Of a stretch of DNA of 64,000 nt, positions 54,411 through 61,483 are shown in pieces (position 1 is the stretch's first letter; each line of letters begins with the position of its first letter). This stretch comes from Candidatus Bathyarchaeota archaeon (GTDB taxonomy: Archaea > Thermoproteota > Bathyarchaeia > Bathyarchaeales > Bathycorpusculaceae). The position numbers were made by a program, and so were the translations under genes. The notes beneath the pieces were generated by a model, which saw only the letters and a list, made by a program, of their open reading frames with translations, was not told where the DNA came from and searched no databases. The stretch lies in NCBI GenBank assembly GCA_963715865.1, contig OY970280.1, forward strand, positions 2,112,001 through 2,176,000, read 5' to 3'.

Positions 54411-55652
54411 TCAGCTATCACTAATCGAGCGCTTATGAGAAACTTGCGGAGAATAATCGATTAAACGGCCAAATCGGCTATCACCGCCAAATACATCCTT
54501 AATAAGGCTTCGGGAAATTTCAAGCCTGATTTTTTTCGTTCTACCATACCGACCCATACTTACAACTTTCGCATTTACAAGACCCATGGAATCAAGCTCG
54601 TTAATTAAAGTGCCTAAACGGCGTTGTGTCAGAAGCCCAGCACCCAATTCGCCACAAAGTTCGTTGTAAACATCGTATATTTCGCCTGTAGTAGCACTTG
54701 ACTTGTTCAAGTGGTAAACGCTGAGAAGTACTAATGTGGAATGTAGCGTTAAATTTTTGAGAGCTTCAACCACTCGGTTATGCTCAATATTCTTCTCCGC
54801 CTGGCGTACATGCTCTTCTGTAATTACCTTAGCGCCTTGGCGCTCAGCAACTTCTCCAGCAACACGCAACAAATCCAGAGCTCGTCTCGCATCCCCATGC
54901 TCAGCAGCAGCCAAAGCTGAACAAATACTTAACGCTGAATCAGACAAAACGCCCTCTTGAAAGGATAATTTTGATCGTTCAAAAAGAATGTTTCGAAGTT
55001 CACCCGCATCGTACGGCCTAAAAACCAGTTCTTCCTCGCTAAGAGAACTAAAAACTCTAGGATCCAAAAATTCCTTCAATCGAAGGTCGTTTGATATGCC
55101 GATTATCGAAACCTTGCTCTTATGTAGAGTTTCATTTATCCTTGTTAGCTCATACATAAAAGCGTCTCCTCGGTCTTTGATCAAGGCATCAATTTCATCG
55201 AGAACTATGATAAAAATTATTCTGGAAGAATCTAAACCTGCTCTAAACCTATCAAAAACTTCACCAACAGACAAGCCTGTAAAAGGTATAGCCACACCAA
55301 GGTTTTGGCTTAGATTTGCGAAAACGCGGTATTCCGAACCGGTCATTCGGCAATTTATGTAACAAAATTTTACTGACGCACCATATTCTTTCGCCTTAGA
55401 TTCTAGATGGCTCAACACGTATTTTGTTACTGCTGTTTTTCCGGTTCCGGTTTGTCCATAAATAAAAATGTTAGAACATCTTGCATTCTTTAGGACTGGC
55501 GCAACAGTTTGTCCTAATAATCTTATTTGTTCTTCTCTGTGGGGTAATTTTTCAGGAAGATAATCGTGCCTCAGAACTTCTCTATCCTTAAACAATCGAA
55601 CTCCATTAACGAAATTTTCGAATACGTCATCTAATACGCTTGGATTTCCCAT
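54411..55652 (-). CDS. cdc6: Orc1/Cdc6 replication initiator
   Basis: LPHRE, GQTGTGKT, LDEID, GDARRALDLLR, C-terminal wHTH GRYGRT. Confidence 0.97.
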   Translation of the reverse strand: MGNPSVLDDVFENFVNGVRLFKDREVLRHDYLPEKLPHREEQIRLLGQTVAPVLKNARCSNIFIYGQTGTGKTAVTKYVLSHLESKAKEYGASVKFCYINCRMTGSEYRVFANLSQNLGVAIPFTGLSVGEVFDRFRAGLDSSRIIFIIVLDEIDALIKDRGDAFMYELTRINETLHKSKVSIIGISNDLRLKEFLDPRVFSSLSEEELVFRPYDAGELRNILFERSKLSFQEGVLSDSALSICSALAAAEHGDARRALDLLRVAGEVAERQGAKVITEEHVRQAEKNIEHNRVVEALKNLTLHSTLVLLSVYHLNKSSATTGEIYDVYNELCGELGAGLLTQRRLGTLINELDSMGLVNAKVVSMGRYGRTKKIRLEISRSLIKDVFGGDSRFGRLIDYSPQVSHKRSISDS

Positions 55653-55800
55653 TTACCCAATCTCACATTTTTCAGAGGCATCACTGTTATTTCGTGTGGA
55701 ACAGATAAAGCATATAGTACAAAAAACTGGTCTTGGAACACAATAATCCTAAAAAACGATGGAAACACTCGATAACAACTAAACAAAATGAGAGCAAGAC

Positions 55801-56267
55801 GCACCCCAATGTTTCTACTGGAAAAAAATCTTGTTTAAGAAGAAAATGACTTTATTTATATTAATGTAAATATACTCTGATAGGTAAGAAGTAATTTGGT
55901 ATATTAATAATTCCTATCCAAGATTTTAGATAAACAGTTTGCAAATATTTTTTCAAGCTTTCCTAGCTTCTTTTTAGCCTGAACACTTCGAGAGGAAACA
56001 TAGGGGTGCCCCTCCAAGTATTTTCCCAATGGTAAATTAAATTATTAAAAGCGGTAGTTAAGTTGTTTTAACCGTAACTAATTAAATTCTAAACAAAGTA
56101 TATTTTCAGAATTTTCGCGCTAAAGCCTTCCTATTTTTAGTTCACAAAACTGTGAATCCGTGTGAAATAGCATTAAAATTGTTCCTTTCTCAAGTCTCTT
56201 TTCATATAAATTACCCTTTTCCTGTCCTTTCCCTGTGAATAAGGCACCCCTTCACTTCTACTGGAAA
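55801..56267. other. Replication origin (oriC) with three ORB elements
   Basis: ORB1 55801-55824 (-) TTTCCAGTAGAAACATTGGGGTGC; ORB2 55987-56009 (+) TTCGAGAGGAAACATAGGGGTGC; ORB3 56244-56267 (-) TTTCCAGTAGAAGTGAAGGGGTGC; AT-rich spacers; directly upstream of cdc6. Confidence 0.9.
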
Positions 56268-56463
56268 AGTAAAACAAAGCCATAACTAAATTTTTTTAGC
56301 TGTTTCACTTTAGCGTGAAGCTGGTTATTGTAAAAAAACTGTATTTTTAATCGTTTTTTAATTTACAAGCTTGATATTGCCTTTTTTAATTCCTTTGTTT
56401 CACCATAACAGCTATAAGTTGTGAAGTGTAAAGCTTGTGAACAACCCTTAAGGTGTGCACCTA

Positions 56464-56892
56464 ATGCCAGCTCGTAAAATACGCGTTGAGCTGTTCGATA
56501 GCGATGGTAATCGATATACTATTGCTTTTGAGGGTCAGGTAACCCGTGATAAAGCTCTACGCCTCTTGGATCTTGTAGAATTGCTAGGTGGTGTACCGGG
56601 TGAGGGTCCAACTTTAGGTACAGGGGCTTCTTTACCAAATCGCGTCCTTTCGCGCTTTGAAAAAGTTCAGTTAGTGATTCAGAAAAGTTTTCCGTTAATT
56701 TGGTTTTCTTCAAAGGATATTCAGTCGATTTATGAGCAGGAACTTAAAGAGCCAATTAGCCTTAGTACAGTTTCCACTTATCTTTCAAGGATGGCAGGCA
56801 AAGGTATGCTTTTAAGGACTGGTGGACAAAACAATTTGAAGTATAAAACTGCAAACATTTCTCAAGCGACTATAAAGCAACGCATAAAGTAA
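56464..56892 (+). CDS. Origin-adjacent winged-helix protein
   Basis: C-terminal ISLSTVSTYLSRMAGKGMLLR helix-turn-helix/wing; divergent from cdc6. Confidence 0.8.
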   Translation: MPARKIRVELFDSDGNRYTIAFEGQVTRDKALRLLDLVELLGGVPGEGPTLGTGASLPNRVLSRFEKVQLVIQKSFPLIWFSSKDIQSIYEQELKEPISLSTVSTYLSRMAGKGMLLRTGGQNNLKYKTANISQATIKQRIK

Positions 56893-56977: not shown

Positions 56978-57997
56978 TTGGATAAGAGTATTGAAGTAGA
57001 CTTCGGCGAAATGGAACATAAACTTAAATGTTATATTGATAAAGGCAGAATCGCTCTTGGAAGTCAAGTAAAAGAAGAACCGTTAGTAGCGGTAAAACCT
57101 GATGCTTCACTAATTAGGCCTCTAAAGAAAGTTACTACGTACATGGGCAGTTTCATTGCTGTTGACTGCTCCACTCGTACTTTAAAGCGAGCAAATAATT
57201 GGGGAGTATACTTAATGCGCGCCTCATGCGTTTCAGTTAGAGAGCGCGCAGTTGATTGGAGCTACTCAGAGAGAATTTGCACTGTTGTCGGGGACTCGCA
57301 TGTACGTAGGAGTTACCTGCAGGATTTTAGGATTGAATTAGAAAGTCAAGTTGCTCTGCGAATGCTTAAAGAACAACTAAGTAAGCCTTACCACGTACAT
57401 GGGGATGTACGTAGTATGTACCTTCTCCTAGATGGTGGTGGCTACTTTGGTGGTGAACGAAAGTTTAGAGTATCTCTTTATGAGGAATGCAAGAAAAATG
57501 GTGTTAGGCTTTTAGCCATCAGCAAGAATTCTCCTTCAATGCATGATGAGAAAGGCAGAGACTTAGTCGCTACTACGTACACCATGACCTCTCATCCAAT
57601 TTGGGTGTATTACCCCGTGCGGAAAGCAGACAAAGACAGAAGCTTGTATGGCGATATCGCTATCGTAAAGCTATGCGCTGAAAGCCAGCACGTTTTCCGT
57701 TGTGACATAATGGATTATCTTACCCAACAAGATATTGTTGAATTGCTTTCACCTTTAACCAGCGTCTGTGAGGATCCTCGATGTGTAGGTTATCCAATAA
57801 GCCTCTACTTGGCACACGAATTCTCGGCCCCTTCAAATTCTATGCTGTTTTCTTATCATGACCAGATTGAAGATAAACTAAATGAAGCAGGATTGCTTGA
57901 TGCTCTGAGAAGAGAAGAACGTTCATGCAGTTTTGCAGATGAGATTCATGGAGTAAAACACGCGTTTGAATGGGAGATGTGGGATGACCAATACTGA
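56978..57997 (+). CDS. nurA: NurA-family nuclease
   Basis: IAVDCS, LLLDG, ISKNS, GYPISLYLAH. Confidence 0.82.
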   Translation: MDKSIEVDFGEMEHKLKCYIDKGRIALGSQVKEEPLVAVKPDASLIRPLKKVTTYMGSFIAVDCSTRTLKRANNWGVYLMRASCVSVRERAVDWSYSERICTVVGDSHVRRSYLQDFRIELESQVALRMLKEQLSKPYHVHGDVRSMYLLLDGGGYFGGERKFRVSLYEECKKNGVRLLAISKNSPSMHDEKGRDLVATTYTMTSHPIWVYYPVRKADKDRSLYGDIAIVKLCAESQHVFRCDIMDYLTQQDIVELLSPLTSVCEDPRCVGYPISLYLAHEFSAPSNSMLFSYHDQIEDKLNEAGLLDALRREERSCSFADEIHGVKHAFEWEMWDDQY

Positions 57998-59513
57998 TTC
58001 AATAGGATTTGTTTGCGGAACAAAGGGCGATTCAGTTTCATTTCTAGTCAGCAAAAACATCGGATTATCGTTTGGCCAAATAGTACGCATTGACTCTGGC
58101 GAAAGAAACTTTTATGCCCGGGTCGTTAATTCTGAAAGCAGTTCAACCCTTGAAACAATAGAACAGTTGCGTGAGGCAGAAGGCAAAGAGGCATTTGGAC
58201 CATATTCAGCTTACAGAAGTGTGGAAGCGATCCTGTTTTTGGAAAAGAGAGGCGATACTTTGCGTTCGCCAACATTTAACCCAAACTACCGTGACAGAGT
58301 ATACGCCTCAACCGACGAAGACTGCTCCATATTAAAGCTCTCAGGCGAACTTGAAATTGGGTGCTTGCGTTCAGAAGACCAAGTCCTAAGCTCAGTAGGC
58401 ATAAACATTGAAGCTATACCCAAAATGATGGGCATGTTCGGCATGACCGGCTCTGGAAAAACAAACACCGAATTAATCATAAATGCTCAACTAATCGATA
58501 ACAGTCCAAGAACTGTGGCTCTAATTTACGACTTTGCCGGGCAACTTCTAGAGGGAAAAGAAATTAAAACACAAAGAGGTCTAAAAGATCACCCCTTATT
58601 CCACAGCAAAGTCCAATTCTACTCAGCTCAGGATGGAAAAATGGCTGTGGGCTTAAGCACTATAATCCCTGGCAAACTCGAAACTCTGTTTCCTGATATT
58701 CAGCCTCCTCAAAAACGGCTGGCATGGGCCTTGTATAGGCATTTTGGAGCTGACTGGATTCAAAGTGCCAGAGAACTGTATCATAATGAGGGAAACGTTG
58801 GTGTCCGTGCGCAAAAAGTTGTTGCTGACGCACTGATGCAAAAGCTCTCCTCCCTATCAAGTGACCTCTTCCCAGCTTCTAATTACAGTTTTGTTGAAAG
58901 TGTCCTTCAGAATATATGCAAAGGCATAACCTGCTTAATCGACATTTCAGGGCTTCGTTCGGAAGATCAAAACCGAATCGTTTGTTTATCTGCATCAGCA
59001 GTAGCTGAACATTATAAGCGTATGTGGGAAGATAACTTCGAGGAATGGCGAAAGCTTCCTACGCTGCTAATAACCCTTGAGGAAGCACACGAGTTTCTTG
59101 ATCCAAATAAGCCTCGGACAATTTTTTCTGATATTGCCCTTACATATCGCAAGTACAGGGTTGGGCTTAACGCTGTGACTCCAAGGCCTTCAAGGATTAA
59201 CTTTGACGTGTTTGCTGAGTTGTGGACTAAAGTGATAATGAAAACAGAGTTGAAGAAGGATAGACTTTACTTGACTGAAAATACTCCGTACATGGAGTAC
59301 AGTGAAACAGAAATAAAAATGCTTGACGTCGGTGAAGCTTTGCTTATTTCAGAGCCAAAGATCAAATTTGCTGTTCCAATCAAGGTAACGCATTATCCAG
59401 AGTACCTAGATAAGCATCGCAGGGTTGATTATGGGCTTCCTGATTCACCGAAACTTACGCAGATGGATGAGCGTCTTAAACGGTTGAGTGGGCAAGAGAC
59501 GCCTTCTTTGTAG
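57984..59513 (+). CDS. herA: HerA/FtsK-family ATPase (HAS barrel plus DUF87)
   Basis: N-terminal barrel; GMTGSGKT Walker A; LEEAH Walker B; RKYRVGL, TPRPS. Confidence 0.88.
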   Translation: MTNTDSIGFVCGTKGDSVSFLVSKNIGLSFGQIVRIDSGERNFYARVVNSESSSTLETIEQLREAEGKEAFGPYSAYRSVEAILFLEKRGDTLRSPTFNPNYRDRVYASTDEDCSILKLSGELEIGCLRSEDQVLSSVGINIEAIPKMMGMFGMTGSGKTNTELIINAQLIDNSPRTVALIYDFAGQLLEGKEIKTQRGLKDHPLFHSKVQFYSAQDGKMAVGLSTIIPGKLETLFPDIQPPQKRLAWALYRHFGADWIQSARELYHNEGNVGVRAQKVVADALMQKLSSLSSDLFPASNYSFVESVLQNICKGITCLIDISGLRSEDQNRIVCLSASAVAEHYKRMWEDNFEEWRKLPTLLITLEEAHEFLDPNKPRTIFSDIALTYRKYRVGLNAVTPRPSRINFDVFAELWTKVIMKTELKKDRLYLTENTPYMEYSETEIKMLDVGEALLISEPKIKFAVPIKVTHYPEYLDKHRRVDYGLPDSPKLTQMDERLKRLSGQETPSL

Positions 59514-59515
59514 GT

Positions 59516-60235
59516 TTATGTTTGTTGGCTGTTTTCGGTTTTCTTTAGTAGCTTTTCCATCTCTTTTTTGATACTGTACCTAAAGGGTATTTTGCCTACT
59601 TCCCTTTCCAAATAGCCTTCTTCATAAAGTTTCTTCATCAGTCTTGCTGTGTGCTCCCTGCTAAGTTGTACTCTGTCTTTGACTTCCGGCGCTGTCTTGG
59701 GGCCTTCTGAAGATAACATTTCCAGCACTGCAATTTCTGTATCTGTTAATGCAGCCATTGCTTTATCACGCTTGATTGGTATAACAGGTTCACCTTTAAT
59801 TTCGGGAGCAACAGTAAACTTTTGGATTTGCTCTTCAAAACCAGTTATTTTCACCCTTAACGTTTCCTGGGAATCTTCAATATCTTTGATTTTCGATTCC
59901 AAACTGGTTAATCCTGATAAAATGTTAGTGTTGTTCTGTGAAATAGCGCTGACTTGATTCTCTAAAGGCGCCATCTTCTTTTCAACGTTGTCCATCTTTT
60001 TAAGGCTTGTATCAGCTTTAGCAGAGCTTCCCTCAACTTTGTATGCAATAAGTTCTAATCTGTCGGCTTCACGCTTGAGTTCTCTGTTAAAACTGAGCAC
60101 AATGTCTTCGACAATATCCTTAGCTTTCTCGTATTCTTTTTGTGCCTTGCGTATTTGCCTATAATACTCCACTGATGCTGCTACTGTCGCAGCCAGCAAA
60201 ACGCCTAAGATTACAAGTGCAAAGTCAACCGTGCT
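59516..60235 (-). CDS. Membrane-anchored coiled-coil protein with C-terminal winged HTH
   Basis: In-frame VDFALVILGVLLAATVAASVEYY TM, long heptad region, LTDTEIAVLEML...SREHTARLMKKLYEEGYL wHTH; start codon needs a 1-nt homopolymer correction near 60237. Confidence 0.8.
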   Translation of the reverse strand, partial: STVDFALVILGVLLAATVAASVEYYRQIRKAQKEYEKAKDIVEDIVLSFNRELKREADRLELIAYKVEGSSAKADTSLKKMDNVEKKMAPLENQVSAISQNNTNILSGLTSLESKIKDIEDSQETLRVKITGFEEQIQKFTVAPEIKGEPVIPIKRDKAMAALTDTEIAVLEMLSSEGPKTAPEVKDRVQLSREHTARLMKKLYEEGYLEREVGKIPFRYSIKKEMEKLLKKTENSQQT

Positions 60236-60245
60236 TTTCCACCCC

Positions 60246-60519
60246 TGTGATTTAAGCGTGATTTAATCAGTTGCATCACACATCACAGTTCCCCATGGAC
60301 TTTTTAAGGTTTGCGGTGACATTCCCGCATGTTCTTATGATATCACACATCACAATCTTTTCTTTTGACTACTCCCCTCCCTGAAAGCCTGCTAAAACTC
60401 TTTAATTTAAGCTTATTTTGGCATTTAGGGCTTAAACGTAGCACGTGCGCTTCAATCTTTTTAACTTTAATTTTCTAGCTAAAAATTGTTGCTTAGTCCT
60501 GTGATTTGTGACGTCACAA
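60246..60519. repeat. TCAC/GTGA motif array 1
   Basis: ATCACACATCACA twice (60275, 60342), TGATTTAATCA (60259), palindrome TTGTGACGTCACAA (60506-60519). Confidence 0.7.
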
Positions 60520-61014
60520 GGGCTCTTCTGATGGGCTAGAAAGCCGTTTTAGGCTTGTTTCAAGCTCTTCCCGTATGATTTCTATGACTTTTAGATGGTC
60601 CTTTAGTTCCTCTTCCTTGTCAGGTGTGCCTTGATGTGCCTCGACATATTCGTGCAGTTTATTGGCTATTTCGAGATACGGGTCAAGAGTTGTGCTATCA
60701 AACACTCCTAAGTACCCTAAAAGTAGCACTGTATAAATCGATTTTATCACGTTTTCTTTGGACTGTTTTAACGTCCTGTTAAAGGCTCCGCGGCTTATTT
60801 TTGCCTTAGTTAGCCTTAAGTTGGCTTTTTCGTCGTATTTTAGCTGTTTGCCCGATATATTTTCGGCTAAAACGTCTATTAACAGTGTTTCAAGCTGTGT
60901 TTTGGTTAATTGGCTGTTTTTAGCGAGTATTTTGACAATGGGGTCGTTTAACGCTCCTGTTAACCATGCTTGAACGCTGTCTTTAAGCTTCAAACTGCTC
61001 ATCTCTTCCATCAT
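60514..61014 (-). CDS. Hypothetical HTH-containing protein
   Basis: LTKTQLETL...KISRGAFNRTLKQS resembles a sigma-like HTH. Confidence 0.75.
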   Translation of the reverse strand: MMEEMSSLKLKDSVQAWLTGALNDPIVKILAKNSQLTKTQLETLLIDVLAENISGKQLKYDEKANLRLTKAKISRGAFNRTLKQSKENVIKSIYTVLLLGYLGVFDSTTLDPYLEIANKLHEYVEAHQGTPDKEEELKDHLKVIEIIREELETSLKRLSSPSEEPL

Positions 61015-61368
61015 CTAAATGAATACACTTTTGTATACTGACTCGGGCTTTTTAAGGCTTATCCAATCAAAAATATGATCCTTACCTGCTATTAAAGCAG
61101 CCAAAAAACGGGTGAAATAGGAAAAGAAAGCAAAACAACTGCTCTTTGCAATTTAGAGGAATAAATGGCATATTTAACATATAAACGACTAAAATATTGA
61201 CTATTTAGCGGGCGCTTTCACGGATTTTAAACGATAATTACAGTTTTAAAACGTTTACTTGTCTTCTACTCTTTCTTATTTGGCAATTTTACTTTCTACT
61301 GCCAAATTATCGTTGCTCTTTATTTTGTAATCTTTTCAGGCCTTACTTTTTCCCTCATCAACTTCAGT

Positions 61369-61483
61369 GTGATTGGGTTAATAGGATTCGTGACGTCACC
61401 TGTCACGTTAAAATCACGCTGATTTAATCAAAAATCACTTGATATCACAAGATTGTGATACGTTTGTGATTTCTAATTATCAC
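61369..61483. repeat. TCAC/GTGA motif array 2
   Basis: GTGACGTCAC (61390), TGATTTAATCA (61420), TATCACA-N4-TGTGATA (61443-61460); ten RTCAC/GTGAY units in ~115 bp. Confidence 0.75.

Follow-up and report, generated by a model that had tools for sequence, protein, structure and literature searches.

In archaea, chromosome segregation is still largely an open question; reviews list only SegAB, whose mechanism is not understood, and the plasmid system AspA-ParBA (PMC7617429, PMC5120986). For RicO and RocS, a three-part logic has been proven, in which a winged helix, a coiled coil and membrane attachment are combined with origin-proximal sites (10.64898/2026.03.06.710092; PMC11500499). The unifying features of RicO-ricS of Staphylococcus aureus, RocS of Streptococcus pneumoniae, RacA-ram of Bacillus subtilis and pSK1 Par are these same elements, with specific sites near the origin and no dedicated ATPase. 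A winged helix, a coiled coil, a predicted membrane anchor and candidate sites near the origin are also found at a locus in the closed 2.35-Mb genome of a Candidatus Bathyarchaeota archaeon, whose relatives are annotated as Bathyarchaeia. The locus lies in a 64,000-nucleotide stretch of contig OY970280.1 (positions 2,112,001 to 2,176,000; "the window", to which coordinates refer unless stated otherwise). It comprises a gene labelled CCW here for its membrane helix, coiled coil and winged helix; its helix-turn-helix (HTH) neighbour, labelled HTH2; and three arrays of RTCAC/GTGAY units. With a probability of roughly 0.55, each chromosome has a single centromere-like locus, made up of these arrays and bound by CCW as an ATPase-free tether between DNA and membrane. 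This reading is built on the motif, its co-occurrence with CCW, its overprinting on coding sequences, the architecture of CCW, and synteny.

That CCW would work like RicO, RocS and RacA is rated slightly better than even, but it is not a member of their group, and no homology to these proteins or to pSK1 Par was detected. The domain order is reversed, with the transmembrane (TM) segment first and the winged helix last. CCW has a true N-terminal TM helix, whereas the bacterial proteins use a C-terminal amphipathic helix or a contact with DivIVA; its winged helix is C-terminal and of the MarR/ArsR/TrmB type, whereas theirs is N-terminal and of the MerR type; and its sites form a single 1-2-kb patch around its own gene, while theirs extend over about 600-700 kb. 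Sulfolobus SegAB and pNOB8 AspA-ParB-ParA resemble CCW in having archaeal centromere-like sites beside the gene (PMC5120986), and iterated sites of this kind near an origin or gene, as in ParABS, SegAB and AspA-ParBA, are indeed present at the CCW locus. AspA is a winged-helix centromere binder (PMC5120986) and appears among the generic fold matches to CCW. Both archaeal systems depend on a Walker ParA-type ATPase and lack a membrane anchor (PMC5120986), whereas CCW loci are devoid of ParA. No match to ParB CTPase or to ribbon-helix-helix proteins (SegB/omega) was found in Pfam or NCBIfam for CCW, HTH2 or W145, an uncharacterised winged-helix protein encoded next to the origin.

The arrays stand out sharply from the rest of the genome. 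Array A (60246..60354) contains seven half-sites around a TATA-like box (60302-60307) and the CCW 5' leader, with 11-bp-phased GTGAT units and two ATCAC pairs 7 bp apart. Array B (60500..60518) is a GTGAYRTCAC palindrome with one additional half-site; it overlaps the HTH2 stop codon and is the most conserved element among CCW-bearing Bathyarchaeia. Array C (61369..61483), about 350 bp upstream of HTH2, has ten half-sites including a palindrome at 61390. An earlier note on this DNA had the counts exactly right; the units lie at 60247-60353 (seven), 60501-60517 (three) and 61369-61483 (ten). Its expected rate of about one per 250 bp was too high, since the 5357 units in the whole genome amount to one per 440 bp. 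The two densest 120-bp intervals of the genome start at 61369 (10 units) and 60247 (7), the next best holding 6; in three simulated order-3 Markov genomes the number never exceeds 5 per 120 bp. Two of the longer words that the note saw repeated, GTGACGTCAC (60508 and 61390) and ATCACACATCACA (60275 and 60342), occur nowhere else in the genome; the third, TGATTTAATCA, is present at 60259 and 61420 as described, but has four further copies elsewhere. GTGAYRTCAC itself has three copies genome-wide, two of them at this locus. In Bathyarchaeia, the units preferentially form the 10-bp palindrome or direct repeats spaced by 7, 10, 11 and 21 bp. In one relative (L051, G047:C15), palindrome-plus-half-site elements recur every ~1.0-1.5 kb over 5 kb, from CCW to Elf1, and include a duplicated block.

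Similar sites are known from unrelated systems. The parS heptads of pSM19035 omega (ParB), WATCACW, have a near-identical ATCAC core, occur as 7-bp direct and inverted repeats, and form arrays that double as promoter operators (PMC9499535). Omega, however, is a ribbon-helix-helix protein with a ParA partner (delta) and requires contiguous heptads, whereas the CCW arrays are dispersed (5, 7, 10-11 bp); the likeness is probably convergent. In Escherichia coli, MatP-matS is built on GTGAC/GTCAC half-sites, often in coding DNA, and a coiled-coil protein that links a chromosomal domain to the envelope or divisome. The matS sites have a 3-bp spacer and are scattered over the terminus, and MatP has a different fold from CCW, the comparison being by motif only.

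The inverted units might in principle act as RNA hairpins, in a leader structure or a small RNA, and not as protein sites on DNA. RNA folding of array C is favourable (z -4.65), and a hairpin is possible in the CCW leader. This explanation is nevertheless barely credible: compensatory change was seen in 0 of 12 predicted pairs across 19 leaders, there is no Rfam match, and the sites are found in unrelated mRNAs and in either orientation. Moreover, species differ in the unit number of the leader array by steps of 10-11 bp, that is, of a helical turn, while the spacers vary freely. A structured non-coding RNA as such was rejected, as neither covariation nor an Rfam family was found.

The CCW gene (59516..60232, minus strand) encodes 238 amino acids, and the architecture proposed for it earlier, a TM helix followed by a coiled coil and a winged helix, is borne out by profile matches and by a structure model (mean predicted local distance difference test score, pLDDT, 89.6). 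In the model, residues 2-137 form a single helix (pLDDT >90), first TM and then coiled coil, followed by a low-confidence linker and the winged helix. The signal-anchor TM helix spans residues ~3-23, with a Kyte-Doolittle 19-residue mean of about 1.9-3.1 in Bathyarchaeia and Nitrososphaeria. Because YYR and basic residues follow it, the positive-inside rule would place the C-terminus in the cytoplasm. The coiled coil of ~110 residues is also recovered by coiled-coil profiles; a homodimer prediction (score 0.21) gave no verdict and is used neither for nor against.

The C-terminal winged helix matches TrmB, MarR and HTH_27 above the Pfam cut-offs, and a fold search places it nearest to MarR/ArsR/Lrs14 types. 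The Lrs14 and Sta1 family models gave 24 bits against a cut-off of 90, and every NCBIfam match was far below threshold. Its recognition helix carries REHxxR, which does not vary among 57 Bathyarchaeia, hardly varies across the phylum, and is present in all 148 top family representatives checked; 118 of these 148 have the N-terminal TM helix. Membrane-associated archaeal winged-helix regulators of TrmB/MarR/Lrs14-like type exist (COG2512). CCW has the winged-helix class in common with them, but is set apart by its long stalk, by the lack of a regulon in the source genome, and by forming a family of its own, which is bounded (1087 clusters at 50% identity).

The real start codon is most likely the ACG at 60232, and not the TTG at 60199 chosen by gene callers, which cuts into the TM helix. 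Of the 24 genus loci, 18 share the ACG, preceded by a purine-rich element, and 16 of these lack a canonical in-frame start upstream; in the remaining six the corresponding codon is ATG, GTG or TTG, and the database cluster representative has Met at exactly this residue. In the source genome, a Shine-Dalgarno-like GGGGTG (60240..60245, minus strand) precedes the ACG by 7 nt, and the purine-rich element of the 18 ACG-start loci is equally far from the codon. The one RNA run found gives thin coverage of the locus. In the genus loci, the ACG codon (60230-60232) usually overlaps an ATCAC unit.

CCW is widespread, occurring in most Bathyarchaeia, and essentially always present in one copy. It was found in 35 of 41 close relatives, 144 of 251 genomes of the phylum, and 115 of 121 Nitrososphaeria (the 121 include the unpublished genome G445, which contributes one count to that tally and no other result). 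All 87 sampled Nitrosopumilaceae have it, among them Nitrosopumilus zosterae; other named carriers are Caldarchaeum, Methanomethylicaceae and Culexarchaeum. In the 251-genome survey, CCW was not found in the families presumed to include Sulfolobales. Across Bathyarchaeia and Nitrososphaeria, the gene pair and its arrays are conserved and mostly linked to the origin, as the earlier note's idea of a module near cdc6 would have it. In the window, the replication origin (oriC, 55653..56454), with three origin recognition boxes (ORBs; 55803-55823, 55987-56007 and about 56244-56268), sits between an origin-type cdc6/orc1 gene (54411..55652, minus strand) and W145 (56464..56892, plus strand), and the arrays are 4.0-5.4 kb from the ORBs. 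The order cdc6, oriC, W145 converging on CCW, then HTH2 holds in most Bathyarchaeia and in Nitrosopumilaceae; in the other Nitrososphaeria, cdc6 falls inside the 18-kb locus in 15 of 18 cases.

The arrays follow CCW. When all 512 5-mers were ranked by locus versus flanks, ATCAC or TCACA came first in all eight CCW-bearing groups. ATCAC ranked 1-3 of 512 in each of these groups, but 467th in nine Bathyarchaeia loci without CCW, all of which retain HTH2 and W145. In these genomes CCW was not found by single-sequence search or, in sampled members, by profile search; they represent three separate subclades interleaved with CCW-positive lineages, all within one larger clade. Another 16 CCW-less W145 loci from five other families, five of them with HTH2, have no arrays (one count was borderline, p=0.03), which brings the CCW-less loci without arrays to 25. 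Related genomes are not independent, and the pattern recurs in about eight lineages. Phylum-wide, the motif is invariant, and so, very nearly, is the recognition helix. Because the arrays track CCW across about eight lineages, its winged helix is the putative binder of YGTGAY.

HTH2 (60514..61014, minus strand) would be the other candidate, or else W145. HTH2 is an all-helical protein of 166 residues without a named family, and it was single-copy in 130 of 151 Bathyarchaeia. Its earlier description as an HTH protein stands in part: the model folds confidently, and residues 33-107 weakly resemble a tetra-helical HTH of LuxR/sigma4 type, but there is no Pfam or NCBIfam match. A fold search gave only weak HTH likeness above background, and the Atlas returned unnamed clusters alone. 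The HTH-like segment with its conserved SRGxFxR, and the centring of the site clusters on the HTH2 gene in Bathyarchaeia, would suit an HTH2 that binds the arrays in place of CCW. This is very improbable, however, since 14 loci keep HTH2 (mostly with W145) and have neither CCW nor arrays, and the motif is enriched at CCW loci without a nearby HTH2. W145 fares no better: W145 loci separated from CCW show no enrichment, and in Caldarchaeales the arrays accompany CCW-HTH2 and are missing at the distant W145 locus. The link between arrays and gene pair that had been suggested thus holds for CCW, and not for its HTH neighbour.

An autoregulatory operator had been named earlier as a simpler alternative. 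In its fuller form, CCW would be a membrane-bound transcription factor that proteolysis or a cell-cycle cue might set free, and the arrays its main and auxiliary looping operators for CCW, HTH2 or nearby origin genes. Several features fit: in this order of Bathyarchaeia, array A brackets the TATA-like box, leader, Shine-Dalgarno sequence and start codon of CCW; the winged helix resembles those of MarR, TrmB and Lrs14; tight control of dosage is suggested by the ACG start; and where an inserted gene is co-oriented, the arrays can remain in front of the operon (L052, L055, L059, L084). Autoregulation via array A is plausible. As an account of the whole system, this explanation is unlikely. In seven loci, a divergent hypF displaces the CCW start by 2.4-3.0 kb from the HTH2 3' end. 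There, the arrays stay behind: 0-4 sites lie in the CCW 5' region, and 11-19 are found 1.4-2.4 kb away from the CCW promoter, in the hypF 3' half and convergent gene ends. Nor does CCW have an extracellular sensor domain in the structure model, and no target regulon was found elsewhere in the source genome, where stray motif clusters are coding or low-complexity. Outside the window, an intergenic cluster of four GTGAT/ATCAC units in an ATATCG-type low-complexity run (G000:C1:716281-716345) lies ~5 kb from ftsZ.

The sites are also written into whichever genes occupy the slot. Coding DNA holds 201 of 780 clustered sites, about a quarter. For hypF in the slot, a site cluster beyond synonymous shuffles was found in ten distinct loci (p<=0.02), with altered residues at the cluster, compared to 0 of 22 hypF copies elsewhere. 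Three loci with hypF in the slot depart from this: in one hypF is inverted, one has a TM-less CCW, and one is borderline; in TM-less lineages, hypF totals are not above synonymous shuffles and clustering is borderline, so that overprinting is not claimed for them. Likewise, nadE has 4-13 sites in the slot versus 0-4 elsewhere, and an aminotransferase 6-12 versus 1-4 in the source genome's paralogues; in other lineages, the position of array C falls inside one or the other of these coding sequences. In 35 Nitrosopumilaceae, the coding regions of CCW (239 sites, 54 expected) and HTH2 (178, 44 expected) are strongly enriched, whereas the W145 and cdc6 controls are neutral. These patterns favour a positional cis-element over a promoter operator.

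A further pattern concerns ParA. The only loci with ParA genes next to HTH2 or oriC are five, from three lineages, in which CCW is absent or has no TM helix (L254:6221-10780, L256:11136-12325, L266:9627-10807, L076:3586-4653 and L062:7713-8489). Some have small partner genes, L254 has a ParB-domain gene, and the parA of L076 is frameshifted. No strong ParA match was found in ~100 loci with TM-bearing or array-bearing CCW, and none to AAA_31 (E<=1e-10) in Nitrosopumilus zosterae; in the source genome, a distant MinD-like gene is the only ParA-type match. This pattern is suggestive only. Together, the overprinting, the promoter displacement, the regulon not found in the source genome and the ParA pattern argue that an operator is not the whole function. 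Family f23 has no CCW; there, genes judged SMC-like and ScpA-like by eye from their translations lie directly beside cdc6 (L067:3102-5844 and L068).

If CCW is a tether, its mode of action could be as follows. The N-terminal helix would anchor the protein in the cytoplasmic membrane, with the C-terminus inside, and the protein would probably oligomerise through the coiled coil; from 110 helical residues, the oligomers should extend roughly 15 nm into the cytoplasm. Their winged-helix heads would bind many YGTGAY half-sites, in 3-4 clusters over 1-2 kb, with the flexible linker tolerating varied site spacing and orientation. The resulting multivalent nucleoprotein patch would hold a normally origin-proximal locus at the membrane, so that an early-replicated region could be positioned or segregated without a dedicated ATPase. 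Sites overlapping the CCW promoter, leader and weak ACG start would provide autoregulation, as is usual for partition proteins, and this, with the ACG start, would keep CCW dosage low. HTH2 is a likely accessory. More tentatively, and judged a little less probable than even, this would be an ancestral chromosome-anchoring system of Thermoproteota, in which a kinetochore-like protein that spans the membrane is paired with a compact point centromere, one that extends even into the codons of adjacent enzyme genes. Nitrososphaeria, marine ammonia oxidisers among them, and Bathyarchaeia would use it as their main means of segregation or positioning without an ATPase, with ParA-type cassettes as substitutes in some lineages that lost CCW.

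Several observations weigh against a tether of this kind. Looping operators of the auxiliary kind can lie within genes, as lac O2 does, and array A does cover the CCW promoter in the source genome. The membrane anchor is not universal: about 20% of CCW family representatives have no TM helix, some of which may be truncated gene calls, and TM-less loci of the Methanomethylicia type are still ~2-3-fold enriched in the motif, although enrichment is weaker with TM-less versions. Several families have no CCW at all, and the ParA pattern comes from few, related genomes. Finally, the origin may be distant or missing. In a complete Caldarchaeales genome, CCW is ~490 kb from W145 (about 490-590 kb across Caldarchaeales), and in the Bathyarchaeia family f24, HTH2 is present in 29 of 35 genomes and an origin-type cdc6 in only one of 35.

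Origin linkage as a fixed property, as originally envisaged, is therefore not upheld. In f24, CCW and arrays are present in all nine loci examined, and its DP1-CCW loci (for example L077, G158:C1, and L087, G152:C6) have neither W145 nor ORBs. Two near-complete f24 genomes that were checked have no ORB cluster, and their sole cdc6 is a paralogue of ~30% identity; f24 is possibly a naturally origin-less lineage. The cdc6/ORB observation also concerns families f21, f34 and f18 and the genome G077. Because f24 retains the module without them, the module needs neither Cdc6 nor ORBs, and its linkage to the origin is ancestral and positional, as for parS. The same family bears on another explanation, in which the complex controls replication near oriC, either by sequestering a fired origin at the membrane or by pausing one fork in the manner of RTP-Ter or SeqA. 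The ancestral position, 1-5 kb from the ORBs on one side of the origin in both Bathyarchaeia and Nitrososphaeria, would suit such a role; it is nonetheless quite improbable, given the persistence of the full module in f24 and the many origins without it.

The module is real, deeply conserved and undescribed, and would be a new archaeal variant of a DNA-membrane tether if the centromere-like reading holds. No paper on it, or on any archaeal DNA-membrane tether, was found in the literature searched, whose coverage mostly excluded subscription journals. Its protein family is named, its motif precise and its locus single, which makes the segregation question directly testable. Even as a regulator it would be unusual: several archaeal classes retain the motif, which is also superimposed on the genes of unrelated enzymes and apparently shapes their amino acids.

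The genes between W145 and CCW are lineage-specific occupants, in the window a nurA-like and a herA-like gene (56978..59513, plus strand). The adjacent HerA pump had been considered a possible partner, but because HerA-NurA is missing from most loci, it is not part of the system: the pair is intact in one of 24 genus loci (the source genome only), and present in 12 of 20 family and order loci, 0 of 40 loci from other orders, and no Nitrososphaeria loci. A frameshifted C-terminal herA remnant between W145 and CCW (L003:2244-2377) shows recent loss of nurA-herA in the genus.

W145 is more widely spread than CCW, and lies beside ORBs in 166 of 251 Thermoproteota genomes. It converges on CCW in most relatives, and its presence does not predict arrays. 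W145 often adjoins ORB pairs without a nearby cdc6, and is a candidate origin-associated factor. Its identification with Sulfolobus UBP, or with any solved protein, was rejected for want of a convincing PDB sequence match; the UBP paper does not mention these lineages. GTGAA/TTCAC units occur close to oriC (56141-56441), and around the origins of Bathyarchaeia without CCW, GTGAA is one of the most enriched 5-mers; these units may belong to W145 and not to CCW.

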